From: Lytechinus pictus
Lineage: Eukaryota
Assembly (NCBI RefSeq): GCF_037042905.1
Contig: NC_087245.1
Coordinates: 20,028,001-20,092,000, forward strand
Direction: 5' to 3'
DNA length: 64,000 nt
Of the stretch, positions 1 to 35,158 are shown piece after piece. The notes beneath the pieces are model-generated. The model searched no databases. It was given only the letters and a program-made list of their open reading frames with translations, and was not told the origin of the DNA. The translations under genes were made by a program, and so were the position numbers. Numbering within the stretch: the first letter of the stretch is position 1; the number at the start of each line of letters is the position of its first letter.

Positions 1-427
1 GTGAATGCAAAAACGCATGCTCCACAAAAACCAATAAAGGACCACCCTGGCGTGAAACTGCCGGCCTCCTCAAATCATTTGCGGCGCACTTTGAAGAATG
101 GTTCAAAGCTATTCATTTTGGTGCCCTTTATAAATATTTGTCCAAGGTGCTATATCAGAGCACACTTTGCATCTGCTGCTTTGACTAGATTACTGGAACA
201 AATGTGATATTGACATCATTTCTCCTGCCCTTGACTTTGTGAGAGGTGGGTCATGGGGGCGGGGAAGAGACCACAGGGTACCTCATCGAAAAGAATAGAA
301 TCTATTTTTTAGAACCAAATATACTGGACTGGTTTTCAACCGCTTGATTAACCCCCGACACCTTTTGCGCCTGCTCTTGCACCGTAAAGGTCACAGGAGC
401 ATATGACATGGGTCTTGAATGATGCTC

Positions 428-745
428 TTAAAGGGAATGCACACCATGATGTCTTCAAGCTCGTTGATAGAGTGTTGCATCCGCTTTATTATTGCGGGGA
501 AAAGGCCGCTGGTCCTTTTAAAGAGAATGCACACCATGATGTCTTCAAGCAGGATGATATTGTAGCATTGGCTTCACCATTATGGGACTGGCCACCAGCC
601 TCGACGAATGATTTTACAGGGAATGTATTATGATGATGCCTTTGGCCTTGGTGATGTATATGCTGTCCATTGAGGTTGACCAATGATCTTGGTCTTGAAG
701 GAATGCACACTACAATTCCTTCAAGCATATCGCAGTATCCACTTA
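428..745. repeat. Decayed ~90-bp tandem repeat (about 4 units)
   Basis: ttaaag(g/a)gaatgcacaccatgatgtcttcaagc at 428-460 and 518-550 (period 90, 1 mismatch); degenerate copies near 613 and 696; the intervening segments are also weakly similar to each other. Confidence 0.7.
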
Positions 746-1861
746 ACATTCATGCTCAGAAAGTTTCTACAAATTGACATATAAACTTATCCAAGGACTG
801 ACTCTTGTAGACAAACAGATTATACAAATTTGATTGGTTTCCATTTCTCTCACTGCTTCCCCATTACTCAACCCTGGTTTTAAAAAGCCATCAATATCTC
901 GCCACTTGACATATAGAACCAGAAATGGTTTTAATTTATACAAATGCTTCTTGCATAATATCAACAATGCCACTGTGTAAAAGAAATTTAAATTTGTCCA
1001 ATAGTAATAGCAGCAATGAATAATCTATTCAGACGACAATGTGCATTCAAGATCGTCTTTCCACTTCACAGCCAGGGACCGTAAACCTATTCCGGGACAG
1101 CCTCTTTCCCATCCCTCCGCGTACCGATGTCGGTTCACCCTCAGCACGATTCCTCCATGAATGAAGAGCATGTTTTCTATGCTGATGAATGAGACACAAG
1201 GTATTTGAAGACTTTCCAAGACACTTCTTTTTAGAGAGAAGACACTGACCTATTTACCTTATATTACTTCAGTCATTCAGGGGCTCTGAATAGGAATGCA
1301 TTTACATATGATTATGACCCTAGTGGTGAAACCTGGTCCATCAAGTACAAAAAAGCCCTCGGTATTCGGCCATTCCGACATGCAGAGGACCTCCCTTTAC
1401 CCTTTACACTGCGCTCCCAGGCAACACAATTTGATCATGACTTTCATGTAGTGATGTAAGTACATCTGAGAAGCAGAGGAGAATCAAGCATATGAGAATC
1501 ATAAAGACACAAGCACTGCATCTAGGGTATAAAAATATAACCCGTCTGTTCCCTTTACCACCAGAGAAAAATGTATTCACTTCTCTAACAGTGAATGTTA
1601 TACTAATACTTCAATTATGAAAATATCATTGAATACTCATCTATTTTATGGAGAGGAGATACCCCAACCCCATCTTAATCTTTCATTTGATTTAAAGATT
1701 TTGTTCAAAACATAATGACCATAATGATAGCAGTATGCAAGTATAAAGCTGTAAGCTTCTTAAATGTTTAATGTAAAGTTTAAGTCCAAAGGAGAAAACA
1801 AGATCTACTTGCATATACCACCGTTGTCCTGATACTCTGAATGATGATTGATTTCAGTTGG

Positions 1862-2120
1862 TCTCTACACTCTCTCTCTCTCTCTGCAGTCAATTATCAT
1901 CTCCCATGTTTTGCTCTCCATCTAAACTTATTCTCTCTCATATACACCTTCTTCGACTTTCTCCTTGCCCTATTCATTTTTCCGACATCCAACTACACGT
2001 TATCCCCCCCTCTCTCTCTCTCTCCCTACCACTATCTCCTTCCTTGTATTCTTTTCCAACATCCATTTACATTTAATCCCCTCTTTATTTTCTCTCTCTC
2101 ACCTTCTCTCCATCTCTCCT
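1862..2120. repeat. (CT)n-rich low-complexity pyrimidine tract
   Basis: Several ctctctct runs; explains the L/S/F-rich ORFs at 1841-2153. Confidence 0.85.
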
Positions 2121-2130
2121 ATGATCAATG

Positions 2131-2252
2131 ACTCACCTGTTAGCCAGGGGTAAGGAAGGCAACATCAAGTCCAAGGCAGCCATGATGGAAGAAATGTGGG
2201 GAAAAGAGAGAAAAACAAAAACATTTCATTAATAATTTGCACATTATATGTT
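2131..2252 (-). other. Juxtaposed 3'/5' splice site (candidate recursive splice site), or the donor of a short alternative first exon
   Basis: Minus strand reads ...TTGCCTTCCTTACCCCTGGCTAACAG|GTGAGT (AG 2138-2137, GT 2136-2135); no other AG for ~113 nt upstream, pyrimidine tract and TTAAT branch-like motif. Confidence 0.5.
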
Positions 2253-3688
2253 CTCTGTCATGCATTATTAATGCGGATAAGAAGGATTTTTGCTTTCAAT
2301 CTGCATCAGTTTCATGTTCATCACAGAAAATGCATCTGAGTTATGTAGAGAGGTTAAAAACGCTTTACTAAGATACTCATGTCATAGGAATGTATGATTT
2401 AGAGGTTCCTATATCTTGTCAAGTTTAGTTCAGAAAATAAGATAATATTCATCAAATTACACTTGCATATATTGACTAGAAATCATTTAAAATCATAAAA
2501 TTGTTCACTATAATGACACAAAATATACAGTTTAAATAGAAAATGTTAATTTCTTCTACAATTCATTATCCCATTTCATCAAATTATTGCAAATTGATAT
2601 GGGGAAATGTCAAATTAATTATCTAGTCTGAAGACTTAATAGCCATCAATGAATCATTACTGATACCCTAAAGCAAAAGGCTGAAAATGAAAAAGAACAT
2701 CTACACACTTTCTTTATCCTTGCTTATCGATAAAGTGAAATACTACTTTCATAAATCACCTAAAATTAAATTTTCTTTAATACTGGATATTAATATTATC
2801 AATAATATAATAAAACATATTAATCAATAGACTAAAACAGCTGCAAATTCTTTTCCACTATTTCCTACTTTCTTCCCCAAAAAAATGTTTACTATCTTGC
2901 TAATGTAATGTATATTTTAACTTTAATGAAGAAAGTTCTTATTGGGTTGAAATCTTGTATGTGATTTAGGAACACTATCTTTTAACACAACTTCAAACAA
3001 TTTTAGTACAACAATTTCGAGGAGAAACATCATCAGGAAGAGAGACCTCTCAGCCAGTCTGCTAATTTGTCAAGTTCAACAATGTAACTCAATCCTATGA
3101 GTATACTTCATTGTCTTGGTTATAAGATTACAACATCTCGTTGACAGAGGTTTTTCCTCGCTGGTGGCCAGCCAGCCAAACGCAATCTTAAGAATCCAAG
3201 ATGACGCGGAAGAAAGGTAAACTGAAAGAGAAGCCGGGACCACAAACTGACACTATTCACTCACACTGATTGATTGGCAGCAGGGACCTTGATTAAATGG
3301 TCAATATTGGATAACACAACATCATCGGATATTAACTTCCACTTCTTTTATTTCAGTCGGGGAGTTTGGGGCTGCTGCGAAGACACCACATTTGCCTTCC
3401 GTTCAACGCGATCAGCACGTTCTCGGATTGGGTAAAACAAAAGTTCTCATGCAATGAGTTGTGGTAGTGTATACTAGCTCCACAAACTCTGACATTACTA
3501 GTCTTTCAAAAGTAACTTCTTCACTTCCTTTCGTTAGTCATGACTTACAAGATTTAAAGCTGAACAAAAGTGAATACTTATATTTAAGATATCTTCAAGA
3601 ATTTTTATTCTGGAACAAAAAGTTTGAAATGAAAAACTAAATTCCTTTTCTATTCAAACTACAAAACCAAAACAAACTCAGTCTTTAC

Positions 3689-4065
3689 ATCAACTCCAAA
3701 CTCAATAACTGATTGACTACATTCGAACAACCAACATGGCCAAAAGGAACCGAATCAGGTACATGCCCGGGAGAAAAACAATTCTGAAGCGTCAGACTAG
3801 TTGGCCTAAGCAAGAAGGATCGTGTGAGAGGCATTTTGGCAGGTGTTGGCTGCGATCCAACAGACAGACAGACAGGCCAGAATGAGCGCCACGCTAACCT
3901 AAACAGTTTCCCCTTGCTGACATGCTGTACAATCCTCATAGTCTTCCTGGACAGTCTTTTGATTGAAACCCAGCACCCGCTCCCTACCTTGGCACTCAAT
4001 TTGACATACATGTGCGGACATTCAGACACGAGAATGTTAATAGCATCAAAGAATGTTGATAGCAT
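3689..4065 (-). CDS. Possible coding alternative first exon (unidentified)
   Basis: 126-aa ATG-initiated ORF in a GC-richer island, ending at a weak phase-2 donor AT|GTAAAG; no recognisable domain. Confidence 0.15.
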
Positions 4066-7000
4066 TTAAACCGAACAAGAGGCCATGTTTTGTTTCCCTG
4101 TATAATGGAACATACAACCTATAGATGTCGAATGGAACTTTTTGCTCTTTCTCTAATATGCATTTTGCAAATGAATTATTCCTTGCCACAGCAGAAGATT
4201 GCAAGGAACACCTCATGAGGTTCATTAATTACTATACATCTGAAAAAATCATATTGGCTCTCTGCACGCAGACATGCTAAATTGAGTACAACAGTTTCTT
4301 ACATGTGGAATCTGTGGATCAATAATCAATTACATAAAACTGTCTATGGTTGAAATATGTATTTCTGCTAAGTCTGGCTCAATACATCTGAGTGATAAAC
4401 TTTCTAATTTGATTTGATGGACAGAATAAGCCAGTGTTATGATTGATGCATGGGGCACTGGGAAATTTACTCCCCCCCCCCCTCCCCCATCAAATTAGAT
4501 CTTGAAGGCAGCAATAGAGCCTTGCATGATTGCTATTGGTTTGATCATAAAATGTTATTTGAAATAAAACAATTTTAATGAAAACAATACTTTCCTATAA
4601 TTTGTTTAATCTGACTAAAATTTAAGTTAGATCATTCTTCTAAGTAACTTTTTAAAAAAGTAAAATAATCAGAGAAAATTTGATTGAAGGGGTGGATAAA
4701 CTGCAAACTTATGTGCTTGTGAAGCATAAGAATACCCCTTTAACTGCACAATATACCTTCATCCTCAAAATAAAAATTGGCAAAGGGGGATAAAATTTTT
4801 CATATTTACAGCATTCATTCCAGTTGTCAATCATTTCTATAAATTGAAGCCAAATAATATAAATTTGAGAACACGCATTAATAGCCCCGGTAACAGCCCA
4901 CTTCATTCCTTCTTTTGGTAAAAAAAAAGTGGCTCAAAATATGGCACTTTATTCAGGCAATAAGAAGAATAAACATTTTTTGTTTGCTTTTTAACTTGGT
5001 TAATAATTCTCATTTGATGAAAAGAGGGACTGGAAGCGTCTGTACTTGAAAAAGAAAAAAAAAGGAATTGAAGGTCCGAGGGGTAGGGATGCCTGGTATT
5101 TGATAATAGCCAAACTAGGCAGTCTCACAAATGTCACTTTCACTTTTAATAGAATAGGCAATGTACTCTACCTTTCCATAATATCACAAGGTAGAAGCAG
5201 AACTTTTTTCTTTTCTTTTTCTTCAAAAATTGGTAGTTATTTAATATACAACAAAGTTTAAATTTCAGATGAGTTCATTCATTACTGTTTTATGAACTAT
5301 TCCCTTTCAAACAAATCCAAACGGCTTTAAAAAAATAAATTTTAGATTAATGCAATTCGAAGGGATGAATAGTAAATTTCAAATACTTTTTAAAGTCTTA
5401 TTGAACAAAGCTGATTCATTTTCAGCAACATTTTTGTAGGACTTCATGGAAGCTTACTGCCACTCATTTATAATTCACCTAAACTTTTAGATATAATCCC
5501 TGTTTTACATTTGAAAATTAGCTTTTTGTTGCAATCTCAACATTTTCCTTACACCATTTCAGTTTTCTTTTTGTTTTCCTCCTCTTCCTCTCCTTCACTT
5601 TCCTAATGCACCCATAATCATTTTTCATCTTTTACTTCTCCTGTTCCCTCACTTTTCTTCTTTTTCTTCTTTTTCGTCTTGTCTTCTTCTTCTCACTTTC
5701 TAATCCAAATCCACTAGCGGTCGAATTACAGATCTCAACCGGGTCGTCTTAATACCAGCAGATACATATTCTGTTATGCTAAGAGATTACAATTCATGAA
5801 TACAAATGTGTGCAAACTAATTTCTCTCCATGTATTCAAGGATTTAAGATTATTAGGATTCATGCTCATACTTAGATTGACATAGAAATTGTGTTTACTC
5901 AGATAACTTCAGCCTTGTCCTTGAAAAATATCAATATTTATGCTCTAATTTGATACATGTACAGGAAAAATCTGTTATATTTCATCAGCCCTATTCTGAT
6001 TTTTTTTCATTTGAAGTGTATCCGGATTTGCTTGAAAAGGTCTGTTTATTCATGCATTTTATCATCTTATTTTCATTCATATATTTATCTACTATTTACA
6101 TACAGATATAAAAGAGCATTTTAGATACTAGTTATCTATGTTTAATTTGCACTCCCATTTCAATTTTGATTGTTCAATACTGTATTCCTTTGTCATATTT
6201 TTCAATACATTTTTATTTCTTTGCATTATATCAAAGAATAACAAATGACGATGAGGAGTAGGACAAGGAGAATGTTGACAATGATGAAGATGATAATAGT
6301 GCATGTGATCTGACAGAAATCTCAATAATGTTCAGGGACACTGTAAGCATTAAAATTCAATAATTGATTTTTTATTTTTTCATTCATACCTACAATTACA
6401 CAAATAGTTTTACATACAGCCTTGTAAAACAAATTCTTGTAACTTTACATTTAAACCAGCAAATCTCATTGATTTTCCCTCATATTATCTCTTTTCATCA
6501 ATAACAAAAATTGCTAATAGTATTCCACTTAAAAATTGTACTAGATAGAGAAATGTCTCCATGCACTCTACAGTGCTCTTCATCAATATATAAAATGCTG
6601 ACAGTACTTTCTGGAATATAATAAAATGAAAAGAGAAATGTCTAGTTATCCTCTTTCTACATCAATGCAATTTTGGGTTTGTCGCCATTGGAATATGTTT
6701 TACATGGACAACGAAAATTTGATGATTTGGGCATTTCACTGCTATAAGGGCATTCCCTATGCTAATGGAATGAGTTAAGGTCTATTTGACGCCAAAGAGG
6801 TGATTTCTTGAATGCGTCCTGCAAATAGGACTGGTGCCTCATAAAGAGCTGTTTTCTCTAATGACATGAATTCAATTATTCAAATGTTTGTGTACTGTCT
6901 GGTTAGCATTATCCCCACAGCCTAAGAATAAACATGATTAAATATAAATAGTTAAAGAAAAAAAAATTAAATATAATTGTCTGTATTTACAGAATCATAC

Positions 7001-7214
7001 TATTTTGGGGGAGCCAAAACAACTGTAAATTATTGGAAAGCTGTGAAGAAACAGAATATAACGATGGAGAATTCATGCATTTTCACTGCTTATGAACCAA
7101 GCATTCTGCATAATAAAAACTCAAAATTAACGATTTTCAAAAATGGGCTTTATAATGCTTCTCACAGGCCTGAATTATATGATGTCATTTTATGTCAACC
7201 AAGTGGAGATTATA

Positions 7215-7292
7215 TCTGTGAAGTGCTTAAAGACATTGTTCTGATGTATTAAGTGCTCTATAAAAAATGTTAATTATTATCATATCATTATC
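7215..7292 (+). mobile_element. L2-type LINE/SINE 3' end remnant
   Basis: tgtgaagtgctt...aagtgctctataaaaaatg followed by a (tta/tca)n tail; same architecture as the L2 3' end at 56130-56195 (tgtaaagcgcttt...aagcgctatataag(tta)n). Confidence 0.6.
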
Positions 7293-7709
7293 AGTCAGCG
7301 TTCAGGTGCATGTTTGTAGATCCATTGTATAGCTATTCTGTGAGTATAGCTAAATGTTTGGTATGATTTCCTTTTTGTCTTTTTGTCTTAACAATGACTT
7401 AGATATTTCAGTATAGTACTATGGAATGCTAAATGTACAAGGAGGGGGGGGGGGTGAGCCAATCATTTCTATGTTGTTTATAGGTTGAGCAACTGGTGTA
7501 TAGAGGTTGTGCAAAAACTCTCAATGTTACTACATTCCACCCGGCAATTGAAGGATGTTGCTGAAGAGAGAACGTGCCCAGCATGAGAAGTATGAATATG
7601 ACCGCACACCTCGGGGGCAAGTTACGCTATTAATATGGATCTTTCTTCTTACGTTCTAGAGTTAAGGGGGTGGCTGGACACCCCCACCCCAGCTGTCACC
7701 TTCAAGGGG

Positions 7710-7736
7710 AAGAGAGAGAGAGAGAGAGAGTGTGTG
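7710..7736. repeat. (GA)n microsatellite
   Basis: agagagagag agagagagag tgtgtg. Confidence 0.9.
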
Positions 7737-8339
7737 ATGTAGGAACAAGAGAATCGACAATGGTGCAAGGTTAATGACTTGCATCTCTTGACTCAAGAGG
7801 ATGCATCTTGGACAGATGACCACGTTCACGCTTTATCTTTGTTAATCTTTACCAATTACGCTTCGAGCTGTTTAAAGACGACCTATATGAATGGATTTGA
7901 GTTGTGTGAACACAGTTCCTGATCAAATACACAAGTATCATAAGAATTTTTCAAAGCATATAGATGTAACCAAATCTATCAAATGCATTATGAATCGATG
8001 ACCATGGCCCTGATACAGATCATGCCGAAGGTAAAAACACAGAATTATCTAATTTGTTGAATTGTGTCAAATGTCATGTTAAAAGAATAAATCTGTTTCT
8101 GTGTTAAGTATTATGACAGAAGAACATTTACACTTCCCCCAAGAAAGTGGTTTATCTTCCTGATATATTTAACAAATATTAAAGACATAGCCCATCTCTA
8201 GAATGAGGTATACACTTCAGGACAGGGGTCTTCCATCAACATTTGAATTTAAAAATTAATTTCAATAAAGCATACATCTTTCTCTCAATATGGCACACGG
8301 TATCTCTGGGATAGTATTTACTGGGTTGAAGACAATACC

Positions 8340-10340
8340 ATTAGAAATGGTGTGAACAGATCATAAGGAAGAACTGGAGATGATCTTGAACTTCATCATT
8401 GATGTAGGTCAGGTAACGCACCTCAAGTCTTTTTCCAGCCAGGCTTCAAAGCAATATGACTACCTTGTCTTTACCGAGTTCACCATGAATCCATGGTACA
8501 GGGTGTTTCAGAAAAGACAGAGGCTGTCATTTTCTGGAATCTTTAACTTTACCAATGATGTAAGTCAAAAAACACAATTGATTTTTTCCCAGCTATGTCC
8601 CAAGGGAAGGTTTGATGACCTTGTCTTGCTGACCATATAGCCAAGGATATCAGTACAGGGTGCCTCAAAATAGATGATGGCTACCATTTTCTTGAACATA
8701 TCAATAATGTAGGTCAGGGAACTCATCTCGGGTCTTTCCCAGCTATGTCTCAAGGCAAGGAGATATGATGTCTTTGGCACACTGGCCAAGGAGCAATGGG
8801 TGAAGTACTGGGTGTCCCTGAAAAGATGATTTCTACCATTCTTTTAATCTTGAACTTTCAACAATGATGTATTTATAAGAGATTGAGATTTGGTGGTCCT
8901 TTTCAGGACCAACATCTGCCAAAGAAAGATACATGGTGTACCGTGAAACCTACTACACTATTCTTCTTCGCCATGGAAACCTTCAGAAATTATATGTATT
9001 TATAAGTAGGTCAGAATGCACATCTCAGGTCTTTTGCCAGTCATGTCCAAAGGCAAGAAGATATGGTGACCTTGTCTCACCGACCATGGAGAGAGGATGA
9101 TATGTGCAAGGTGTTCAAGAATGAGAAACGCTTCCTTTATCTCAATCTTGATCACTTTCAACGATGTAGTTCACGGAAAGCACATCAGGGACTATTTTCC
9201 AGCATGGCTTCAAAGCTAGATCATGCGACCTTGTCTTACAAGGTGTCTCAGAGAAGATGAATGTTACTATCACCTTAGTCTTTAACTTCATCACTGATCC
9301 AGGTACCAGAAGAAGGATAATTACTTTGCCATGGAACAAAGGATGGGATGTACAAAGTGTCCCTTAAACGGCAACAGATTACATCATAACAATCTTGAAC
9401 ATCGATGATCCAAGTAAGGCTGCGTTTATCCTCAAGCCAGAATCATGATTTGAATCATGATTCAAAACACAAACATGAATCACAATATCACAGAATCAGC
9501 GTTTAGACAACTTTCATTCCGATGCTGTTTCTCCTCAGATTCGGGCCAATCCAGTGCGCATCACTAGTGCGCAGTTTGACAGAGGAAGTTTTTTGCACGT
9601 GTTTCGGCTCTTGAAAAAATCTCTTTGCTTCCAGAATTCAGTCTATATCTCATTTTGTTTACTTTTATCATAGGGTCCATGCTTCTATTCATCTTGTCGG
9701 TTTATCGAAAATGGTGTTCGGAAGTGAATTTCAGCGTAGATCCAATTTAATATTGACAGTGTTAAACTGAGATCATTGTCTGTCCAGTTAATTCATTTAC
9801 TAGAACTTGAAGTTGAAGACATGACCAAAAAATGAAAAGTAGTGGACGATGCGATGACCAACGCAGAACTTGAACATGACAAGAAATGCATGCATTGCAC
9901 ATAACCATGTACAAACACTGAGCATATAGAGCGCCTTGAGCTTGGCAAGAGTCAAACCGACACAGTGACATCATAGAATCATGATTCAAATCACGATTGC
10001 GTTTATACGACCTTTTTCGTTCGAGATTCTACAAAAACGTCTTTCCAAACGCCCCCTTTTCTGTGTTTCATGTTTGTGATTTGAAAGATGTTTATTTTCA
10101 CTTTTGACTAAACGCAATCGTGATTCTGCAGAATCATGATTTGAATCATGATTCAGATCATGATTCTAGGGTAAAAAAGTGGCGCATAAACGCACCCAAA
10201 GATATACTGAGAGAGGGATAATGACCTTGGCATGGAAAAAAGAGGATCAGGTGTACACAGAATCCAAGAAATCAAAGTGATTTCATAGTGTCAATCTTGG
10301 ACTTCATCAATGATCTAGCTCAGATAAATGAAAAGAGAGA
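8340..10340. repeat. Ancient degenerate ~150-bp tandem array, interrupted by a MITE
   Basis: Motif tcttgaactt(c)atcaatgatgtaggtcag recurs near 8384, 8540, 8690, 8848, 9146, 9279, 9393 and, after the MITE, 10295; cccagctatgtc has an exact 150-bp spacing (8588/8738). Confidence 0.7.
9418..10197. mobile_element. Non-autonomous DNA transposon, PIF/Harbinger-like
   Basis: TIRs ggctgcgtttat / ataaacgcaccc; flanks taa / aaa (degenerate TWA); subterminal palindromic gaatcatgattc repeats at both ends. Confidence 0.8.
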
Positions 10341-11074
10341 GATAATGGCCTTACATCATTTTTTAAGGTAATTAATTCTGTCATGAATGTGGCAAGTCAT
10401 AACTTTAAAAAAAATCTTGTTCATAGAGAGATGGCAAAATTGTAAGAGAGCTGACAGCTTTTGAATTTACTGTTAGCTGTCAAGTTTTCCTACGTACAAA
10501 AAATCAATTACCAATACACATTTGATACACAAATTCATTTGAACTATCATATAAAATGCATGTGCTCATTTTAACCGCTGTATTGCATCATTGCATATCA
10601 ATAGAAAGATACTTTATACAATAAACAATTTATTACATCCTCACAATGAAAAAGATTTTCCATTTCTTGGAATAAATCTATTAAAAAAATGAATTATCAT
10701 ATAAGATTTCCTGCAGATGAAACAGTCTGACAATTTTTCGATATTAAACTCAAAATTAATGACCAACTGATACAATGATTTTAATGCAAGATTTGTTAAA
10801 TTTTTTTCTTCAAAAATTTTATGCCATCATGAATATTTGAATATAAAGTGTATAAAACAATAATTTTCCCAGGACAGAGTTAGTCAAATTACTCATTTCT
10901 TTCACCGGATAAAAAAAAATATTCATTCAAAGAACAAAAAAAGAGAGTTGATCAATCTGTAATATTTATAGGCATCCATACATCAAATATCTTAAGGGAA
11001 ATATAAGCATTTCGCTGACACATTAATCTTGAAATCTTTCTTCTCCCCGAAGCTTTTCTTCAATGAGGTGAATG

Positions 11075-11088
11075 GTTACCATGGCAAT
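11075..11088. promoter_or_regulatory. RFX X-box-like motif
   Basis: GTTACCATGGCAAT, 1 mismatch to GTTNCCATGGNAAC, inside a GC-richer unique island. Confidence 0.35.
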
Positions 11089-12754
11089 TTAACTCTTTTA
11101 TCTCCCCATCACATTCCTTGAAGATCAGCAAATGTGAAAATATACATGAAAAATGAAGATTTCCTTGAGCGGCACCCTGCAGATATCAAAAGGCAATGAG
11201 GGCCATTTGGAACCTTGCTCCGTTCCCTGAAAAGTCATCTTCATCTCCATAATGAACACCTCATGTTCACCCTGCATCAACAGATCTCATACAACAAGGC
11301 TCGTTGCTCTGGACATATCTGCATAATTACTGCCATAACCTAGATAAACTAAGTCCCTGCAAAGGGACAAGACGAAGAATAGTCGCAACGCACCAAAGCC
11401 CCCCCCCCCCATGCCTTAACTCTCTCGATCCAGATATGGTAATCAGACGTCCTATTCGTAGACACAGACTGCATGTCATTAACGAGTCCTAAACATCAAT
11501 TTTAAAAAAGCGACGCTACATCAACACGACGGGAGAAATCCGACACCTCCAATGGAAGGATAGAGATGCATCACCATTTTGTTCCTTCCTTGTATCGGGG
11601 GAAAAAAGGCCTAAATTTACATCTTAAAGGTATTCGGTGACAAGTGATCAAATGCAATCATCGGGCTGCCTTTACTGGCACAAAAACTTTCATTTGCCAA
11701 AGGGATTAGTTGTTAATGCACATATCAACCCCAAGTACGCTACCTGAAGCAATTTCTTAGCCCCCATCATTCCGACATTGACATTTTGTCGTTGTTTCCA
11801 ATGGATGTTTCAAAATGTTTGTTGGCCGCAAGGTAAAGGTGCGCTTTTTTCTCAAGGGGTTTCATAATCATTGAGAGCGAAGCAAGGTTGTATAACATGT
11901 ATAACTGACTGACAAGATTAACATTTGAATTTGTTTTCCATCATTCCCCCAACTATTTTTTTGCATATATCTTTCTCGGCAACTACAAGCATTTTATTCA
12001 TTCAGCCCATGGAGTACTGTCGATTTCAAATGATCAAAAGATATAAACTATGACATTTTCAGTTTAATGGTAATCTCAGTTAGATGTTGAACTACTAAGG
12101 TAATCCCAGTAGCTTCACATGTAGAGTGGCCTGTATATTTCTCATGACATTTTGCATATTTTTGGAAAGTGTCAGATAGGTTGAATCTCACCAAAATTAC
12201 ATGGTGGGTGTAATAGACATGGAAAACTTACAAAAAATAAAAGAAAATCCTCGTCAATGGACTGCAGATACTTTGGAATTGATTATTCTTGCCTATATGC
12301 AATAGAACATTTTAGAAAATATATCATAAGTAAAGAAAAGAGAAAGAATCTGGCATAAAAATCTAGGTAGAGGTTCATTCAGATCTATGATTTGTGTTCA
12401 AATTATGTCATATCCATCTGATCAATGGTAATATAGGTCATGGGGGATGACTTTCATCAGAAATAATTTCAACAAGAGTTTTAAATCATACATCTCCACA
12501 TCCAGACATTGTGCCGGAACAAAGTCAGATTCTAAAGCTAAAGCTAGGTTGTTTCAGCAAGGGATGATTTCTGTAAGAATAATTTGTCTGTATTGATAAA
12601 TTTATACACATTATTTCAAATTACAGAATACTATCAATGACATAGCCGAGTAGCAATGTGAGCATTAAGAATGCAAGGATGAATCTGTGAAAATTTTACA
12701 TGAAACAGACATTCAATGTATTAATGAGTTCACATTAGAGCTGCAGTTAACTGT

Positions 12755-13126
12755 GGTTTATTTCTAATTTGTCCAATTGCCAACTCGTCTACTATCATTT
12801 GGTCTACTTTCATTTGGTCTAATGCCATTCCGTCTAATAACCAGTTAGTCCAATAGCCATTTAGTCCATATACCATTTGGTCTAATTGGACTTAAGTGTT
12901 AATTGTGCAAAATGAATGAAAATGAAGTGGATATTAGACCAACTGGTTATAAGGCCAAATGGTAATCAACAAAATGGTGATTAGACAAAGTGATGATTGG
13001 ACTAAATGGTTAATGGACATAATGGTCGTTAGACAAAATGCTGATGGACGGAATGGCATTAGACCAAATGAAAGTAGATCATGTGGTGAGTAGATGAGTT
13101 GGCAGTAGACGAATTGGCAATTTACC
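12755..13126. mobile_element. Foldback/TU-like palindromic transposon built from ~15-bp subrepeats
   Basis: Left arm units such as ccatttggtctaatg are the reverse complement of right arm units cattagaccaaatgg; GGT...ACC ends; 8-bp TSD ttaactgt / tttactgt. Confidence 0.85.
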
Positions 13127-13670
13127 TTTACTGTATGGTTACAGTATCACAGTAATCTGAGTGACTTAGTCAAAATTTAACTTATCAATGAAAATTATAT
13201 ATCTTTTGCATATTTTGATCTAAAAATGCATTGACTAAAGGTGATTATTTAACATGCAATTTTTCTGTAACTCTGCATCACGTCTATATATATATATTAC
13301 AAAGACTCGACTGTAATTTCCCAAACACACACACATAATAACACTGCAAACCGGGTTGATTTATATTTCTGTTAAATTTTATCATTAGATTTGGCTTTGT
13401 CATTTTTGCTGTAATTTGGTCATTGAATTGATTTCAATATATGCGCAAGGAGTCATGTTTTCCATGAAGGTCCATGAAATGCTGTGTTCCTCCCGAATCC
13501 CATGAATTTCACATCATTTTCCGTATCACATAGAACCGGGATCTATCTTTTCTAAAGATATGTCAGGAACAACATGGCATTTTCCACCGCAGGGTCATGG
13601 TAACAATCCTCTTCAGTAGGGAACAATTCACCTCCACAGGGACAATTCCAAACCCATTCATTTCATCTAC

Positions 13671-13705
13671 CAAAACCTGTGAAAGAAATAAAGAATAAAT
13701 TGCTT
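13671..13705 (-). other. Strong 3' splice site followed directly by GT
   Basis: Minus strand TTTATTCTTTATTTCTTTCACAG|GTTTTG; the downstream sequence is closed in all three frames within ~115 nt. Confidence 0.4.
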
Positions 13706-14395
13706 AAATAAAACTATTTGATCATCTGAAATCCCACAGGATCCATTCTTGCGCCAAATGCTTCAGGCAAACTAAGATTTCTCAAATCCATACAATTTTA
13801 ATCAAGTTGGTGAAAATAGCAGAAACTTGCAAATCCATAAATCCATCTGTACACACATAGGGATTTAGGAAGGATTACATGCTGATCACTATATTCAACT
13901 TTTTTATGGCAAATTGTATGCAACAATTCTCAAATATATCTGGGATTGTCATATTTTGTTCTTAAAATCTGCAGAAAGATAAAGTGACCTACAAAAGTTG
14001 GTTGGTGACTTTTAATGAGCCAACAATGACTGATCAGACACAGACAAGCCCATGACCATAGGATTCTTTTAACTCACAAACAATATAGACAGACTCTGTT
14101 TCAGAAAGATGAAGAAGGTACTCCAATGTTACACTTATATCTTTGCCTTGACAGTGAGCAGGCTGTCTGCTAGGTATCAAATATTTGAATTTTTAAGTTG
14201 CGTCTTGGTTTAAAGATGGCTTTATACAATATAAAGAAGTGATTATTGAAGACAGGTGACAAAGAAAATCAAACACAGCTCAAGATTCTGTAAGATCTAT
14301 AAAACAATCAAGTTTTGTTGATGAAATCATCAACATTCATCTAAATCATCCTACCAATTTTGTCTTTGAGCAGATAAGATGAATATTACTAAGAT

Positions 14396-14664
14396 CAGGG
14401 CCCCGTCTTACAAAATGTTACGATTGATCCAATCAATCGTAACTCTATTGAAATCCATCAGTGTCATAATTTTTAAATTTGCAACAATGTCCTTTGTAAA
14501 CAAAGAGAAGCACACTGAATTTTAAAGAAAACAATGAATGCATGAATATACATCATAATTAGAAAATATTTTGAACAAACATGCATAATAGATGTTGACG
14601 TTGCTGGCCATCCATAGTTGTGATTGATTGGATCAATTGCAACTCTTTGTAAGATGGGGCCCAG
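14396..14664. mobile_element. MITE with C(A/T)GGG ends and 2-bp TSD
   Basis: ~50-bp TIRs cagggccccgtcttacaaa...gattgatccaatcaatc / gattgattggatcaattg...tttgtaagatggggcccag; AT on both flanks. Confidence 0.85.
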
Positions 14665-17600
14665 ATTTAGATCTTACCTTCAAGAAATTACATTACAGAC
14701 AGTTGTATTGTGGAATAACAGTTCAGATAAACATACATGTACAATAAAATAGTTCTGACAGTGAAATAGTCCTAAACGGAAACTTTTGGGACCCAAATAT
14801 TTTCATAATTTGACACACTAATGCTAGAGATATCTACAACCTTATATTTAGTTTGTGCGAAACCTGAGAACAATGCTCCATTGCAATAACCCGTTCACAA
14901 ACTCATTTCAAGGTCACATCATCCTACTTCACAACCGAACCTACAAGTATCATCAACGAACACGGTTGCGCATGCATGCCATGGCGCCGAGTCCACCCTG
15001 GGGCGAATATGAGGTGTTTGAATCTTAAGAGGGGGCACTGGGATCACTTCTTTGAACTTGGCTCCAAGCAATTCGGTCCTCTCAGTCTAGGTGAGCAGAG
15101 CTATAATGTATTGGCCCCTTTACAACATATTTAGACTCGAGCAGCAGTTTGCGTCAACACTTACACTTGGTAAAGCATCCTTTCATTTGCATACTAGTTT
15201 CTCAATGGGTCAATGATGGGTGATTCCTTATCCTATTTCCCAAAGCTTCCAACATCTTTTCTTGTTCTTCTATTTCCCTCCTTATCGTCCCCATGAATAC
15301 CCCATTCATTATCTCAATTTCATTCAACCATCAGGGGAACATCAAACCCTTACCCTTGAGCTTATATCTCATTCATCATCTCCAATGTATCTCTTTGATC
15401 CACCATGATATACATTACTCACAGAAGACGCAACTAGCCTCAAGTTTTCTTTGATAATGGCCTGTTTTTGCATGAACCCATTACCATTTATAAATAATTG
15501 TTGGGGTCATTATTCCAAAAATAAATCAATGATACTTGCATTTCGGTTACTGCATTCTCCTGCATATCTCCTTCATTCTCTTGCCATAATCAGAGTCATT
15601 TCCAGAGATTTATCTTTTTCTCCCTTGCTAAATGAAAATAACCTTGAATGTTCTCCTTTTTACTTCTTTGTTTTTCGACTGCAAACAAACTCTTATTTGG
15701 TTATTGTTGCTTGTTTATCAACCTATGTCATGTCTTTCACCTGCATCAGCCCCCTCCCAACCCCACCACCTACTTACCTACATTTTTATGCCCATCTTCT
15801 CTCCTGACTCCTCTCTCCCTTTCTCTTTCATTTACTCTCTCAATCTCTTTTCATCTCTCTCTCTCAATCACTGTGATTTTCTATTTCTTCTATCCTTCTA
15901 CTTGATTCCATCTTTCATCAATGTGGGCTTAGAGCAATCATGTAGATATATTGTGAAATGTTTGCACAACCCTAACACTGTGAGCTGCCAGGCAGGGACT
16001 CGGGCCCAAATGCATCGACTCCACGCATACATACCTTGCATGCCTTTCAAAATATGACATAATACAGGGCTTGAACATCACCAAACAACTGGAGATCAAT
16101 TCACATACAACGATTAATCCCCTGATCATAGTGTGAACATTAACAACAGCATTTCCAGAAGACCTGTTCAAATGACAATGGTTACAGTTAAATACCATTA
16201 TGCCGACTGCAATTCATTCACATTACGACAGGCCAGCCATTTTTAAGAGAAAAACCCCAGAACTGGATAGAGAGGCATTATATTCCTACTTTCAGATGTA
16301 ATGATTACTCCACCAATAATCATGTGAACACTGCCCTTCCAAAGTACATTAATAAACAGAGCATCCAAGGATTTGGAGTTTGGTCATTGCAAAACTAATG
16401 TAGGTGTGTTTATGCACATCTAGGCACAAACCTGACATCGTTTAAAATTACCATCATCAATCTTGCATGAGAGGATATCATTATGTGCCAACTTGAAATA
16501 ATAGAAATACAAATTAGGTGTTGACTCCCTGATATGAGGGTTTATACTGCAACACCAATCTATCTCTTGGTTCACAATCAACATACCCATGACCAAGGTG
16601 GTAGAGGGATTAGAACCTGTCAAAGGTTTCCATAGAACCATTGTTTCCCCTGACTGCAGTACAACACCATTTGTCCTTGATTCCTAAAGCATTCATTCAA
16701 TAGTTAAATTGCAGGAAAGCTGCTATCAATCCAAATGTTATCAATCAAATGTCATTCTAGCCATCTGCATCGCTTTTAGAAAGCCAAGCACCGTCAACAA
16801 GGCTTCAAAAGGGCTAACAAAGTGATGGGCATTTGATCTCGTACAAGATGAAAGGCAAATTTAGCAAAGTGCACTATTCATTTCTCCTCGCGCTTATGGT
16901 CAGCGAAACGTTTCATTGTATAGACCACATCCTATGCTTGAGATTGTATAACAATAACGTAAAGTTAATGACAGTATGGGCTCTGAAATCATGATAATAA
17001 TAAAAGAGAGTTAGAAATGCATATGCAAATGTTGAGGATTTGAGGTCAATGATTCAAACTTAGTTTTCTACCTGAATGCAGATACATGTAAACTTGTAGC
17101 CAAAGTTCCCATAAAATTATCACTTGCCAAAACATTAATTCTACAATAGTCTTTACAAATGTTTGTGCAAGCAATGTGAATTGGTATATGATTCATATTT
17201 TTATTCAATCCCTTTTAAACAACTAGATACTCACTTTAGAACAACAACTTCTCATTCCAATGTAGAATTAGGTGGTGATGAAAGAATTTCTTAATTTCAG
17301 TGCATTCACATCTTAAGTAGATAGCTATATGAATTTGATCTCATTGCTAAGGTCTTTAGTTTCTATAAATACCACACCAATTACTATCTATGCATACTTC
17401 TGAATTATTTCAATTCATGATAATATGCAATGTCTTTTTACAGGTTCATAATGGTTTTATTGTGAATATCTATTCACAAACAGGCTATTTATATTCAGAT
17501 TTTGAATAATAACAAGACTAAAATGACTAAAAAATTAAATCTGGAACCCCTTCCAAAAAATTGTGATTTTTTGAGAGGGCTCCATGCTAACAATGAGAGC

Positions 17601-19148
17601 ATTCTGCTTTTGTATCTGTTCTTCAATGTAAAACAAAACAAAAATGCCTACTCCTCAGCCTCATTGTTTTTCCTACGAACCACCTTAAATTCATGTGAAG
17701 ATACATAGAGGAAAGAAAATATTGAATGACCTACAAATTCTTGAAGATGGCCACAAGAGTCTGGACATTTGAAACATCCTATGCATTTTCATTGTGATTT
17801 CTCTTCCAAGAAAGAGAAATCCCATAAAGAGGAGCTCCATCCCTTTCTGACTGCTAAAAGGATGTTAAACCAGACTGTAACATGGAGTTAACCCCCTTCT
17901 AGCTGTGAATGGTCCTTATTCTCTTTGCAGAGTCCTACATTCTACACCTCCTGCCTCAGAACCTCACTAATGCATAAGGCATTGTTTGGAGAGAGGCAAA
18001 AAGGGGTCTCTCGGGTACCTTCACGCAAACCGCTTTGCTTTTGAAGGACAACTTCATGTTTTCCCCTTGATTTAAAAGCCTTTTCCTTCCTATTTTTATC
18101 TATCTGGCTAGTCAACAAACCATGCCACACTTCCCTTTGGCACATTTTATCTTCCACCAAAATATATAATTTCCCTAAAATGTTTCACCTCAGTACTTTA
18201 AAGTTGCAATAATGTATTCCAAAACATCTGTGACCTTTGCAGGAGTGGGGTAATTTTGATTCTGCAACAAGTCAAACGGCAAAATATATTCTTATTCATT
18301 TTGTATTTTTCATTCCAGACATCGCTAGTATGCATCACAGGCTGGCATATTTCTATGACTTATGCAATGCAGGTAAATCACAAAAATCAATCAAGATTCC
18401 AAAAATGTCATTTAATAAAAAATAAAAATAAAATAAACACTTTTTTCTTCATCAGGTGAAAGACAGGAAAAGTAAATGACAAATGATCCAACCCGAGGAA
18501 TATAATCCCAATACAAATATTCTATGCAATGTACATCAGTCAACATTACAAAAAATATCACTTTTCCCCTAAAATGCAATGACTGATAACAACTTGCAAT
18601 AGTTTTTTTTTTTTAATTTGGTTGGGGAGGGTGCACCATCAATCTTTGTTTCTTCAGTTTATTTTTATTAAGCCTTAACCCATATTTTGTTATTATTTCT
18701 ATTTGTAAAAATGACAATACATCTATGATTTGGGAGCAGAATTTTTGTCATTTGTGCCTGATTACCTTTCCCTCTTTCAGCATGCAATGTTCTGTATAGT
18801 TTCTAAATCATATCTAAAACTGAATAAAGAATACTTCCCTCAAGAATTCATATCCCATGGACTACCGTATGAAACACTGTATAGGTGTTTCTCCATCATC
18901 CCTAGTTGCTGAATCTTGAGGGTTTATCTGCGATCAGCCGTATTTGAGGATATTTTAAAACCCTATCTGCATTGGCCTGTCCATTTTTAACTTTACTGAT
19001 GTTTATTTCACACATTTTTTAAACAAATTTCTGTCATTGTTCTTGTTGCTCAGTTGATACTGATGATTGTTATTATGAATTGGTGTAACTGAAAATCAAT
19101 AACACACAAAATATTGGGTGTTACCAAGCATTGGCACCTGGCACTCAG

Positions 19149-19445
19149 GGTGAATAGACATCCCGGATTTCAAGGGACAGTACCGCATTTCCAGCAATTT
19201 GTTCCACGTCCCATACAAACCTGCCTAGAATGCTGTTTTGTCACATATTTCATGGTTTTGAAGAAATTTATGTGAGAATATTAAAGCATTACATTTTTTC
19301 TCATATGCATAGCAGGAAAATTGAAAAAATGATGAAATGTTATATTGTTTTATGGATATTATGTCAAATCTAGCACAAAATTTGAGATTTGCACAGAAAA
19401 GGGACAAATTTTCTCTCTCTTGCTCCACTCGCTCGCAGCTTTTTT
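19149..19445. mobile_element. Decayed hAT-like element fragment
   Basis: Starts cagggtgaatagacatcccggattttcaagggacagt, resembling hAT-type termini; no matching right end found. Confidence 0.3.
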
Positions 19446-19493
19446 TACACTAATGACCTGACCTCGAAGTGTAAAGGATTTTGACTTTCCACA

Positions 19494-19580
19494 TCTGGGG
19501 TCCATTTCATAAAACTTGTTACAATCACAAATAATAACAATTTAAAGCTACTGAAATCCTTCAATTAGACTGGCTGATTG
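19494..19580. mobile_element. Left end of a CTGGG-type MITE (truncated)
   Basis: at|ctggggtccatttcataaaacttg resembles the termini at 14396, 25057 and 50189. Confidence 0.4.
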
Positions 19581-21151
19581 TGAAGTTGAACATACAATGG
19601 TATGGTACCATGCATGAATGACCCTGAGCCAAAACTCAAGTGCATCTTCACTTGTGAATTAGATGGATAATTTGTATTAAAAAAAAAAGAACATTATTTG
19701 GCAAAATAAGTCCAAATCTGACTCACATCTCCACTAATGATCTTGTATTAGCCATATACAAAATTTAAAACGGATCTTCCACAGGCAAAGAGACTGTTTA
19801 TATAGTATTATGCATCTCTAAGAACTATTATCATTTCATTATATCTGGAGATTGTTCTGACTGGGATAAAATCATGGAATAATTTGAAAACTTGGTCTGA
19901 TGGGGATGTGCCATAATTATGATAAACTGATAAAAAAGACTCCTGACTTATCCTGTAACACAAATCATTCTAAGATTTGTAAAATCCAAAACGGTGATTC
20001 TCTCTCTCTCTCAAAAGTCCCCTGTGATTACTGTAACATGGGCTTTAATGGCTCTCTGATTTAACTAGAAAAACAACATCAGTCATTCCATAAAGATGTT
20101 GAGACCCAAGTATCATTCATATTTTCTTTATATGCCCATTCATTGCTCCAGAGTTCATTGAAAAGAGTTCATTTACATTTGAAGATTGTATAATGTTGGT
20201 CAAAAGTCAATCGTAAAGAAGACAAAAACACAACATCACAAATGTAAAGAGTACAATATATAACTATTTTTTAAAATCTGAATTCTAAGAGAAATATAAA
20301 GAAACAAATATGGATTGAATACCAATGATTTTTTCCTTTATTAAAGGTACCATATAAGAAAATTACACACATGTTGAATTAGATTCTGAAGCATGAATTT
20401 CAAGTCTTAATTAATTTTTGGAATTATGAATTTCAAAAGAATCATAAAACTATATCAACTTCTTACTAAATTGAATACAGCAACACAACAATAACAACTC
20501 AGAATTTAGATGTCAGAATTTTCCCCCCAAATAAGAAAAGTCCCCTTATTTTACCTTAAAGATAAATCTGCATAACATCTCATGATACATATCACGAAAG
20601 TAAATTCAAAACAACTTAATCCAATTTCTAAAACCCAATTCTTGCTTTATTTCCCAATAGACACATATGAAATCATTATACAAACCTCAATACTGGACGA
20701 CCAAAAAAGGCAAACATTTTGTGGTTTGGCTTGCCAACATTTGGTGAATACTCCAAAGCGATCGATAATCAATATGATTAATTTTTGAGGCACAATTTTG
20801 GTCAATTTCACATGGGGTTTACGAAGGGGGGTAGTAAAACAAATAAAATTAAAATGGATTAAAAGGAGATACATTTTTAAAGAAAAAGATGACATGTCAT
20901 GTGGAAAAGTTAGTTAGAGAACATTAAAGTAGAAAGAAAAGACAGGAAAAGAGCTAAACAAGTTAAAAGGACCAACGAGTGGGTTTGTCAGAATAACGCT
21001 TTAAAGTAGGGCAGGAGAGGTGGTCTTGAATGATTTCTAAGAACCTTTTACCTTCCTAATTAAAAGTTAGACTCACTGTGGAACAAATAAATTGTAGTGA
21101 AAAAAGAAAGCAAATTAGCAAGGCAACAATAGTCAAAACTGACAAGTTTAC

Positions 21152-21180
21152 CTATTTATAATAACTACAAAGACATGGGG
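21152..21180 (-). other. Candidate 29-nt microexon
   Basis: ~115-nt AG-free pyrimidine-rich tract, ttcatttaattag|CCCCATGTCTTTGTAGTTATTATAAATAG|gtaaac; open only in phase 0 (PHVFVVIIN). Confidence 0.2.
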
Positions 21181-21451
21181 CTAATTAAATGAAAGTGAGA
21201 GGAAGGTATGAAAAAAGAAAGAATGGAGAGAGACAAGGGGTGAAGTGTAAGGCAAACATGACAACAATGATGAAAGCACACATAGTTAAATTTCAACTAG
21301 TTTTATGTCCAAACATTATGTGATCATTAATGTTTTTATTTATGGTCACAATCACACATTTCAATTTTCCTATCACTGCACATTTGTAAACAATGACAGA
21401 AAATTGTGTCCACTGATCCAGAATTATAAACACACACCTAACATCCATCCT

Positions 21452-21473
21452 CACACACACACACACACACACA
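21452..21473. repeat. (CA)n microsatellite
   Basis: cacacacac acacacacac aca. Confidence 0.9.
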
Positions 21474-22583
21474 ATCTTCTTAATCTGAAGAAATATAACC
21501 TTTCTTACATGGTGAATCAACAAAAAAATAATCTATTTAATTATGTAAGCTGTAAAGTGACAAGTTGACTCTCGTATGAGAAGTAGAGCAACACCTCCAC
21601 ATATCGGTATGTTGGTTACCGACATAAATTTTTAATCAACTGTGGTGTTTCACATGACTTTTTCATATCACTCACATTATGCATTTTTCTTTTTGTAGCC
21701 TGCGTCACTGAAATGAGATCTGAAATACGACATGATGAGCATTACATATCAGTTATTGAAAATAATTGATAAAAAGAAAAGTGAGCATTATTGTTGATCA
21801 TTTATCTATATATTTAATCATTAATAGATAATGTTCATACATATTTTATTCATGCATACAATTATATATGACAAATATATCCATGCTTTCAATCATTTTT
21901 AAAATATCTTCATTTACTCAATTATATGTCTTCATTTTTTTTTAAATAATTTTTTTAAGATCTTTCAAATTATTGTTTTTAATTCAATATCCATTTTACT
22001 TGGATGGTTTTATTAAACATATTTAATAAATTAAACTACATCTCTTTACAGTAACATGCAATATGAAAGAACTGAATTGCCATTTACAGTATAACACTTC
22101 ACATGTGAAGAATTTGCTGAAAATCCTTATCATTAAATAAGTATAATTTTTTTATTAATCCTGTTATTTATGGTTATGACTTTGACATTTACAGTAAAGC
22201 ACTATGCGCTTACATCACTTGGAAGCTATTCTTCATCGTACATGGAGAATATGTGCAAGAAAATTTTGCCAAATGTGGAGAGTTCTGTGATGAACAAAGT
22301 GCATCTGAGACTGAAATTAGTTTCTCTGACACAAAGAATAGAACACAATCTCAAAGATCTTTCTCTCTGACACCGACAAAATTCCATGATCAATAATCTA
22401 AGAATGGTAAGGAAAAATTCTAATTCAATGAACTCGGTATACATGAATCATAATTGTGTTTAGAACGTTCACTCTAATTCAAGAAAATCAGAACCCAAGC
22501 TCATCTATCTGAAACAACTGGTTTCAACCAATATCGCATTTGTTGATGCTCTGTTGGTTTGACGGCCGGGCTACAACGGCCAC

Positions 22584-22598
22584 CTGCCATGTCGAGCC
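22584..22598 (-). other. Candidate 15-nt microexon, or start of a longer exon
   Basis: ttcttttttgtgtcacacgttgattcttctgcag|GGCTCGACATGGCAG|gtggcc; good acceptor, weak donor, frame-preserving. Confidence 0.25.
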
Positions 22599-23918
22599 CT
22601 GCAGAAGAATCAACGTGTGACACAAAAAAGAACTGACATGAAGCCATGCCGCACATTCTTATTCCGAATTTCCTGAATTTCATACATATTTGTCCAACGG
22701 CCAGATTTACAATATTCATAGATTTTCTGGGGAGGAAGAAAACTTCAAAATTGTGAAATAAACACTTGTTTTCTCTTCTAGCCTGTTGAGACTTGCCTCC
22801 AAAAAGTGAAAAGACACTGACAACACATTGAATGTTTGCCTATGAAAAATTTACATTTGGATTTTACAGCCGAATTATATTCAGCATTCAGCGTCTTCAC
22901 GAGACAAGTATAAAGACTGGTTGAAATGAATGCAAGTGGCAAATTGGTATGACACTAAGATATTACAGTCCAAGCAACTTAATATGTCTTTGATATCAGC
23001 AAGGCATATCCAGATCCATTTCGCTCGAATAGAAATTGTCTTGATTTGGAATTTATAATTGACTATCATAATTATGTCTTATAATCATTTTAACTCTCAA
23101 AATTAGTTTCAAAATACTAATTCCAACCCCTCCAACTATTATATTCATCGTAAAATTTCATGTTATATAACCTAAATATTAATGTGATTTACACAAAACA
23201 TAATAAAAAATATACTGGTAAGATAAGAAGATAAATCAAGAAAGTTATCAATAAAGCATACAACTGGTCTTAATGCTGAAAGTGACAAAGGCTTTTTTTT
23301 TTTCATGTTTTCCAGGGATATAGTTAAAGTGTACCTGTTAATTGAGAGGGTTCTATTTATAGCAAGATAGGCCTCGAAGTGAACATTGCCAAAATACAAA
23401 GTAACCAAATCCAATCTTATTAGTACATGTTTCACTTAATTTCATTACAATCACAAGATAAGTCCACACACAACAAAAGTTTTAAGAACAGAAATTGTGA
23501 TTTTCTTTTCTTTCGTAAATAATACTCCACAATAATGGGAAAGACCTGATTTTGATAAGAATCCATACAATGAAAAATGATTGCTTTATAAATGTTTGTC
23601 CTATATTTCCTCATAAGAAAATGAATTATCATGAATAGGACAAGAGTATTCTCTTTCTGGGTTTGGTAGTCATACAATCGCCCCACTGATGTTATCAGAC
23701 AGTGCCGCAAGCAGGAGGCTTTTAAATCATATTTGTATTTAAGCTATTGAGTCAACACTAGACATAGAATCTTGGGACCACGATAAAAAATTTCATGGAC
23801 AAGAAAGGAGAAAGAAGGAAATATAGAAGGAAAAGGGATCTTAAATATGAAACACAAAAATATCACTCCCTGTTATAAATCTAGTTACGAGCTGGTCTGC
23901 GTTCTCATTTCTTGTTAC

Positions 23919-23980
23919 CGACTGGAAACCGCTGCAGGGCGTTTACGGAGCATTGTTGATATACAGCGAGTGGGCGACAT
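23919..23980 (-). CDS. Possible short alternative first coding exon
   Basis: ATG...MSPTRCISTMLRKRPAAVSS, then CG|GTAACA (phase 2), in a CpG-richer island. Confidence 0.15.
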
Positions 23981-24339
23981 AGGAGCTTCGTTTCGGAAAT
24001 GAAAATGTGCTACAGAGATGGGTAAACCGCACAACACATTAACATGTTCATTGCCACATTTATTTTGGTATACTGAACTAAACTGCATACAGAAGATGGC
24101 AAACAAAAAATAAGCTTGTTCCGATTTTCCCCTTCAATGATTTACATATTTGTTTGTCAGACGTATTAAATAGGAGATGAATATGGACTTGGATCAGATT
24201 CTATAAAATAGAAATGGTTATGTTTATCTTTTACCATTAAAATATTGATCAATTTAACTTTATATAGCCTACTATATACAGCAAAGGATTGAGTAATGTT
24301 ATGTGAGCTCAACACTTCATATTCATTTCCAAGCTCAAA

Positions 24340-35123: not shown

Positions 35124-35158
35124 GGCATACATCCTACGTAAGGGTGAAGTCTATGAAT

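Follow-up and report, generated by a model that had tools for sequence, protein, structure and literature searches.

A probable recursive splice site in a giant intron of a sea urchin nuclear receptor gene

A tandem acceptor and donor motif, CTAACAG/GTGAGT (the slash marks the splice junction), occurs on the minus strand at positions 2138-2131 of the window (the whole stretch of 64,000 nt analysed here, G000:C1:20028001-20092000 of an 812-Mb genome), and is in our judgement probably a recursive splice site, or ratchet point, of a giant intron in a nuclear receptor gene. The site shows two features of known ratchet points, an AG directly before a consensus donor and a place on the sense strand of a long intron, and is the second of about five sense-strand acceptor/donor sites that follow one another at distances of 24-49 kb. 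Ratchet-type motifs in the long introns of sea urchins were already known; what is new here is a specific chain of such sites together with a probable splicing intermediate.

The acceptor AG closes a run of 114 nt devoid of any AG, the nearest earlier AG ending at 2253; the preliminary description of this sequence had already noticed the motif and its long AG-free tract, with a length of about 113 nt. The length alone is unremarkable, as 21 of about 3,600 minus-strand AG-to-AG gaps measure at least 100 nt. The combination of motif and AG-free zone is rare: two of the four minus-strand YAG/GTRAG matches in the window (2136 and 39285) pass a filter of at least 80 AG-free nt plus a pyrimidine-rich upstream 20-mer, compared with a mean of 0.005 passing sites in 200 local Markov simulations, and neither of the two plus-strand matches in the window passes the same filter, all with filter thresholds and site sets picked post hoc, after the site at 2136 was known. 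The strongest pyrimidine tract is not adjacent to the AG and is centred about 69 nt upstream of it, with a candidate branch point on its 5′ side (Table 1). The CTAAC that does adjoin the AG, at -7 to -3, stands too near to it to serve as a branch point, and was rejected as such on distance. Downstream of the site, a candidate cryptic exon would be closed by a competing donor; two of the five series sites carry an AG/GTRAG donor within 100 nt downstream, and the background for this motif at +20 to +100 is 38 of 4358 sampled sense positions.

Table 1. Features of the site at 2136, of the host gene and of the series of sites along its intron. Positions without prefix are those of the window; series sites other than the second were placed from sequence only.
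Feature	Position	Strand	Remark
AG-free zone, 114 nt	2139..2252	minus	5′ of the acceptor
Candidate branch point TATTAAT	2228..2234	minus	A near -93, just 5′ of the tract; predicted from the letters
Main polypyrimidine tract, displaced from the AG	2184..2221	minus	best 20-mer 95% pyrimidine, centred -69
Acceptor AG (CAG), candidate recursive site	2137..2138	minus	alignment of X2 record 10 begins at 2138
Consensus donor GTGAGT	2131..2136	minus	would be regenerated after an exon joins the AG; predicted donor use
Candidate cryptic RS-exon, 34 nt	2103..2136	minus	purine-rich, frame-shifting
Competing downstream donor GAAG/GTGAGA	2097..2102	minus	possible end of the cryptic exon; borders GA-rich sequence, may be chance
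Host intron, 219.5 kb	G000:C1:20110582-19891089	minus	cassette exon 2 to first zinc-finger exon; contains the entire window 1..64000
Exon 1	G000:C1, ATG 20129373, donor 20129168	minus	mapped from relatives' proteins
Cassette exon 2, 75 nt	G000:C1:20110657-20110583 (L023:8657-8583)	minus	mapped from relatives' proteins
First zinc-finger exon	from G000:C1:19891088	minus	mapped from relatives' proteins
First series site, TTCAG/GTGAGT	39280..39367; GT at 39285 (G000:C1:20067285)	minus	80 AG-free nt; 37.1 kb upstream of 2136
Second series site	2136 (G000:C1:20030136)	minus	
Third series site	G000:C1:20000801 (L004:2801)	minus	
Fourth series site	G000:C1:19964305 (L008:6305)	minus	
Fifth series site, donor GTAAGA	G000:C1:19940076 (L010:2076)	minus	

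The host gene contains a frame of 635 codons, located 166 kb downstream of the window, with 95% identity to a Lytechinus variegatus protein and with relatives in sea urchins, sea stars, a sea cucumber, crinoids and a hemichordate. These relatives carry the Pfam domains zf-C4 and Hormone_recep, and three of them are labelled NR1D-like by their sources; judged by sequence similarity, the host gene is an NR1-type nuclear receptor, and on the same grounds the source animal is regarded as a sea urchin. The bounds of the intron come from tblastn searches with the relatives' proteins on the window and 25 flanking loci, the flanking DNA comprising 200 kb downstream and 50 kb upstream of the window. 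Exon 1, exon 2 and the first zinc-finger exon all meet in phase 1, and the host intron measures 238 kb when exon 2 is skipped. A T>A skew on the minus strand extends throughout the intron. Exon 1, with or without exon 2, is joined to the zinc-finger exon in the protein models of six relatives (P0009, P0016, P0026, P0029, P0036 and P0038), and the relatives' models show no site-derived residues between exon 1 or 2 and the zinc-finger exon, which would agree with re-use of the regenerated donor. The first two exons of the gene, both of which end in AAG, are now linked to the zinc-finger exons over 219-238 kb.

Several other elements were observed in and around this gene. Exon 2, which is absent from some relatives' isoforms, begins with GT (AG/GTGGAA) after a 114-nt AG-free zone with a displaced tract, and may be skipped by re-splicing. 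An alternative first coding exon (L015:7440-7378, minus), 4.3 kb upstream of the zinc-finger exon, encodes 21 residues identical to two sea-urchin records. Within the intron, L004:4743-4618 (minus) matches the N-terminus of a predicted Strongylocentrotus model (P0015) but carries a stop here; either the model contains a mispredicted exon or the element is conserved and non-coding. About 17 kb from the host gene, in tail-to-tail orientation, there is another nuclear receptor gene (L021:5714-7934 and L020:1460-1645, plus). Two sea-urchin models of the receptor with 837 residues (P0014 and P0018) begin in the hinge exon, lacking the first exons and both zinc fingers, and their annotation is probably incomplete. 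The intron also harbours retrotransposon-type ORFs (window 56276-57790, minus, with Pfam RVT_1; and L003:3581-5740, minus, with 720 codons), and a tandem repeat of five 48-bp copies with 95% matches occupies window positions 28761-29001.

The five sites of the series carry a perfect GTGAGT in four cases and GTAAGA in the fifth. Over 238 kb, the motif YAG/GTRAGT occurs five times in sense and never in antisense orientation. Within the 219.5-kb intron and with no filter applied, these numbers correspond to 5 sense copies versus 1.86 expected from independence (Poisson P 0.04) and to 0 antisense copies versus 1.39 expected, whereas sense copies preceded by at least 40 AG-free nt are 4 versus 0.217 expected, and those with at least 80 AG-free nt are 3 versus 0.029. 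When the donor is relaxed to GTRAG the strand bias is gone (11 sense versus 13 antisense), and a further requirement of at least 40 nt free of AG and 60% pyrimidine leaves three such sites on each strand. The five sites split the intron into segments of 43.3, 37.1, 29.3, 36.5, 24.2 and 49.0 kb (CV 0.22), a spacing more even than random placement (P 0.0016; two alternative choices of sites give P 0.019 and 0.031), where the cut-offs and the sites, as in the motif counts above, were picked post hoc. The site at G000:C1:20010980 was left out of the main series and included in the second spacing test (P 0.019), and that at 15777 (TAG/GTAAGT), which has a purine-rich upstream region and only 16 AG-free nt, was dropped from the series. 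A further site in intron 1 (L024:160, minus; G000:C1:20112160), 1.5 kb before exon 2, reads CAG/GTAAAA after 104 AG-free nt and has a tract that adjoins its AG, unlike the series sites. Antisense YAG/GTRAG motifs with 41-72 AG-free nt occur at L003:6531, L003:8066 and L023:6215 (plus), and represent either the level expected by chance or parts of an antisense transcript.

Four sequencing runs were aligned to positions 1-7000 of the window. One of them, X2, is a set of contigs from a single run of unrecorded type, which differs from the window by 13 letters and one gap in 1,762 and probably derives from another individual of the same species. Letters 29-438 of its record 10 (438 letters) align to 1733-2138 on the minus strand and, besides the end, show just two differing letters (at 1822 and 1999, with GTGAGT intact) and a 4-nt insertion. 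Record 9 of the same set covers 1-1762, extends 2.4 kb past the window and overlaps record 10 by exactly 30 nt (1733-1762), so that the 28 unaligned letters of record 10 must lie 5′ of the AG, at the 2138 end. These letters have no joint elsewhere within 1-7000 and are absent from the 23 loose ends listed out of 66, and we therefore infer the partner exon. The ends of exons 1 and 2 are equal to the genome at -2 and -1 and differ from it at -3, so the alignment of either exon joined at the AG would stop at 2138, as is observed. The foreign letters would then be the end of exon 1 or exon 2, and X2 presumably is RNA. By reasoning, the fit is imperfect, since about 22 foreign letters would be expected if the graph also held junctions from the same donor to 39285.

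The depth of X2 changes at the same place. The two contigs that span 1-2138 have depths of 8.8 and 11.5; upstream of the site the depth drops to 0 in seven bins at 2341-3978, is small and patchy up to 5148, and reaches 4.5 in a contig that starts from 5224 with no foreign letters, all of these being flat averages with coverage holes that may stem from filtering and prove nothing. The bin at 2107-2340 contains only the tail of record 10, and none of the 16 pieces listed out of 65 covers 2139-2252. Record 10 and the change in depth appear to be the junction and the step expected of an exon-to-ratchet-point intermediate, following the criteria contained in excerpts of PMC6110457 and 10.1101/2024.12.11.627982. 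The preliminary proposal of a stepwise removal of a long intron has thus gained a good part of its footing, namely a 219.5-kb intron, an even sense series, and an apparent X2 junction with a depth step at the site. As for the other runs, X1 (organism A, with about 3-8% other letters) gave three long pieces, all downstream of the site and none over 2131-2138, and, with about a quarter of each run used, the raw RNA data of X4 and X5 (both organism A) yielded 61 and 57 reads, all aligned only in part and mostly at simple repeats. The depth of X4 and X5 at 2107-2340 is 0-0.01, a value obtained with no control exon and under an organism code other than that of X2, and hence uninformative. Run X3 (share 0.35), from the same study as X2, is left out of these figures. 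Among 24 rows listed for positions 1-6000, three contain the sequence and none of the three is recorded as RNA, which carries no weight in either direction.

A chance motif combined with an assembly or DNA artefact could also produce such a contig, whose end would correspond to a structural variant or a chimera, while the hole would reflect filtering or low depth. The unrecorded type of X2 and the small weight of its coverage holes would agree with this, as would the lack of a genome-wide excess of exact motifs, the similar presence of GTRAG-type sites in antisense, and the vicinity of a GA-rich simple repeat that draws stray pieces. However, the break falls at the predicted base of a contig that is otherwise almost identical to the genome over its 438 letters (2 letters and the 4-nt insertion), and the motif class is observed 3 times in the intron where 0.029 would be expected, and we consider such an artefact improbable.

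The position of the break also bears on whether GTGAGT closes an upstream exon, which could be an alternative first exon of small size (MAALDLMLPSLPLAN) or a poison cassette of 116/118 nt that begins behind the AGs at 2256-2253; altogether this seems very improbable. The preliminary description gave the ATG at 2183 and the phase-2 peptide MAALDLMLPSLPLAN correctly; an open frame of 15 codons exists, and several alternative first exons occur in this gene family, including the one that lies 4.3 kb before the zinc-finger exon. But the frame of MAALDLMLPSLPLAN ends in phase 2, whereas phase 1 is needed at the start of the zinc-finger exon, and a stop interrupts the phase-1 frame 8 codons before the donor. 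No N-terminus preceding the zinc finger in the relatives' proteins compared maps here, positions 2001-3000 are poor in CpG (o/e 0.14, versus 0.97 at the promoter region of exon 1), and the matching of record 10 ends at 2138, with foreign letters replacing 2139-2166. The first-exon alternative initially considered is therefore contradicted by the disagreement of phases and by a contig that lacks the upstream sequence, and both the first-exon and the cassette readings of 2139-2252 were set aside on grounds of phase and coverage.

Another alternative takes the AG as a real acceptor whose donor is not re-used, which would give rise to a long alternative last exon or to a dead-end product of exons 1-2 followed by about 11 residues and a stop, without the DNA-binding domain. 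The contigs, which show the first step only and run on for more than 4.5 kb past the AG, would suit this outcome, and, once joined in phase 1, the frame reads ESLIIGEMERR and then closes. It leaves unexplained, however, the presence of GTGAGT at four of the five sites (GTAAGA at the fifth) as well as their even spacing; moreover, the X2 coverage is 0 before the AG, as if most transcripts were spliced there, yet in relatives the full-length protein is made from exon 1. A dead-end acceptor would have a low probability. Two indirect searches in protein space for an exon joined to the site found no such form: among 11 candidates for short proteins with exons 1-2 and a site-derived tail there was one match, which corresponds to unspliced read-through into intron 1, and none of 12 candidates matched the plus-strand ORF spanning the junction.

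If site 2136 is a recursive splice site, removal of the intron would start with the donor of exon 2 (or exon 1) being carried to 39285, co-transcriptionally and in the 5′ to 3′ direction. The same exon would next be joined to the AG at 2137, with the loss of a 37-kb segment and, as both exons end in AAG, this join would recreate a near-perfect donor, AAG/GTGAGT. The regenerated donor would then be re-used toward 20000801, 19964305 and 19940076 (G000:C1), and finally toward the zinc-finger exon, so that the site would leave no base in the mRNA. The 34-nt cryptic exon would probably aid in the definition of the acceptor and then lose to the stronger regenerated donor. The first step alone has left a direct trace, the X2 contig; we infer the re-use of the donor, the order of the steps and the role of the cryptic exon.

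The position of the pyrimidine tract is a common trait of the series. In all five sites the 20-nt window richest in pyrimidines has its centre between -50 and -69, compared with -13 to -31 in eight of nine ordinary acceptors of the host and the neighbouring gene; the ninth is that of cassette exon 2, with its tract at -58, and a 6-nt microexon candidate has it at -59. As a background within the intron, the tract falls at -45 to -75 in 119 of 620 other AG-free YAGs with at least 40 nt (19%), and in 25 of 80 with at least 80 nt (31%). A displaced tract and a long AG-free zone are features of Srrm3/4-type microexon acceptors, and they are shared here by exon 2 and by the 6-nt candidate. Unlike Srrm3/4-type microexons, the series sites have an exon length of zero, and UGC motifs stand near the AG only at some of them. 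The microexon candidate itself, AG/TGAATG/GTAAGA (L005:3111-3106, minus; G000:C1:19991111-19991106), follows 71 AG-free nt with a T-run and TGC upstream, is one of four pattern matches and the sole one with a good donor, and would insert Val-Asn, exactly the two extra residues of the Strongylocentrotus isoform P0016.

On a genome-wide scale, the pattern Y12-N-YAG/GTRAGT was found 24 times, with no excess over a non-donor GTRTGA control (42) or the reversed pattern (28), and H26-YAG/GTRAGT 164 times, compared with 145 for GTRACT and 92 for CTRAGT, in counts that are inflated by repeats and with patterns neither of which is fitted by site 2136. The lack of a genome-wide excess indicates that the class is either uncommon or built without an adjacent pure tract, as at the series sites, and displacement of the tract would account for null scans that demand a tract beside the AG. 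A dispersed repeat ending in CCCAG/GTGA, on either strand, mimics weak recursive sites (L024:8955, L006:2966, L015:9558, L020:1029 and others), and genome-wide counts would need to mask its copies.

The site is similar to the ratchet points of Drosophila (Ubx, kuz, Bx, Ten-m), where a tandem acceptor and donor is found in a very long intron, with several per intron. Fly ratchet points, as described in excerpts of PMC8605326 and PMC6110457, further show a junction from the 5′ exon to the site, a saw-tooth step in coverage and, behind the site, a short cryptic exon that is out of frame and is skipped because the regenerated donor wins (PMC8605326, in excerpt); candidate counterparts of all three are seen here. 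The segments measure 24-49 kb here versus a fly mean of 9.1 kb in the excerpted literature, and the best tract lies 50-69 nt upstream of the AG here versus next to it in Drosophila, where the motif is strongly conserved. Like the vertebrate RS-exon sites (Sibley et al. 2015, as cited in excerpts of PMC8605326 and PMC6224609), the site lies in a long intron and is followed by a competing donor, here a candidate one, that would delimit a cryptic exon, but three of the five series sites differ from them in having no strong donor within 100 nt downstream.

The preliminary description knew of nothing of this kind in echinoderm-like genomes, a statement that has to be withdrawn in view of Shepard et al. 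2009 (PMC2773006, Table 2), who in the excerpted text report 0.540 versus 0.066 RP-site motifs per 100 kb in sea-urchin introns longer than 50 kb, an 8.2-fold enrichment. The present sites coincide with those in animal group, motif class and sense-over-antisense bias; as excerpted, that study contains motif counts only, with neither a named site nor RNA evidence, whereas here a chain is mapped (about 2.3 sites per 100 kb, by a looser rule) with a contig junction at one site. Annotated RS-exons of sea urchin have been scored computationally (PMC6224609, in excerpt). No RNA-level demonstration of intronic recursive splicing in an echinoderm was found in the open-licence PMC and bioRxiv literature as available in excerpts.

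Intronic ratchet points number hundreds in flies and about ten in humans (PMC8605326 and PMC6224609, in excerpt); the excerpted literature gives about nine or ten intronic recursive sites in total for human, and about five appear to lie in the single sea-urchin intron studied here. Whether flies retain the ancestral state hinges on the invertebrate deuterostomes, for which the literature found gives motif counts alone, and a chain of sites placed to the base, with a probable intermediate, makes this question testable. A broader proposal, which for the moment is rather doubtful, is that giant sea-urchin introns are cut by fly-style chains of zero-length ratchet points with an acceptor design of their own, microexon-like and possibly regulated by tissue. 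If so, the X2 contig would be, within the literature searched, the first sign at the RNA level that an echinoderm intron is spliced recursively. The microexon machinery would then recognise the ratchet points, whose tracts are set 50-70 nt back in an AG-free zone, and stepwise splicing might be turned on or off from one tissue to another. Finally, abundant ratchet chains would then be an ancestral bilaterian trait, largely lost in vertebrates.
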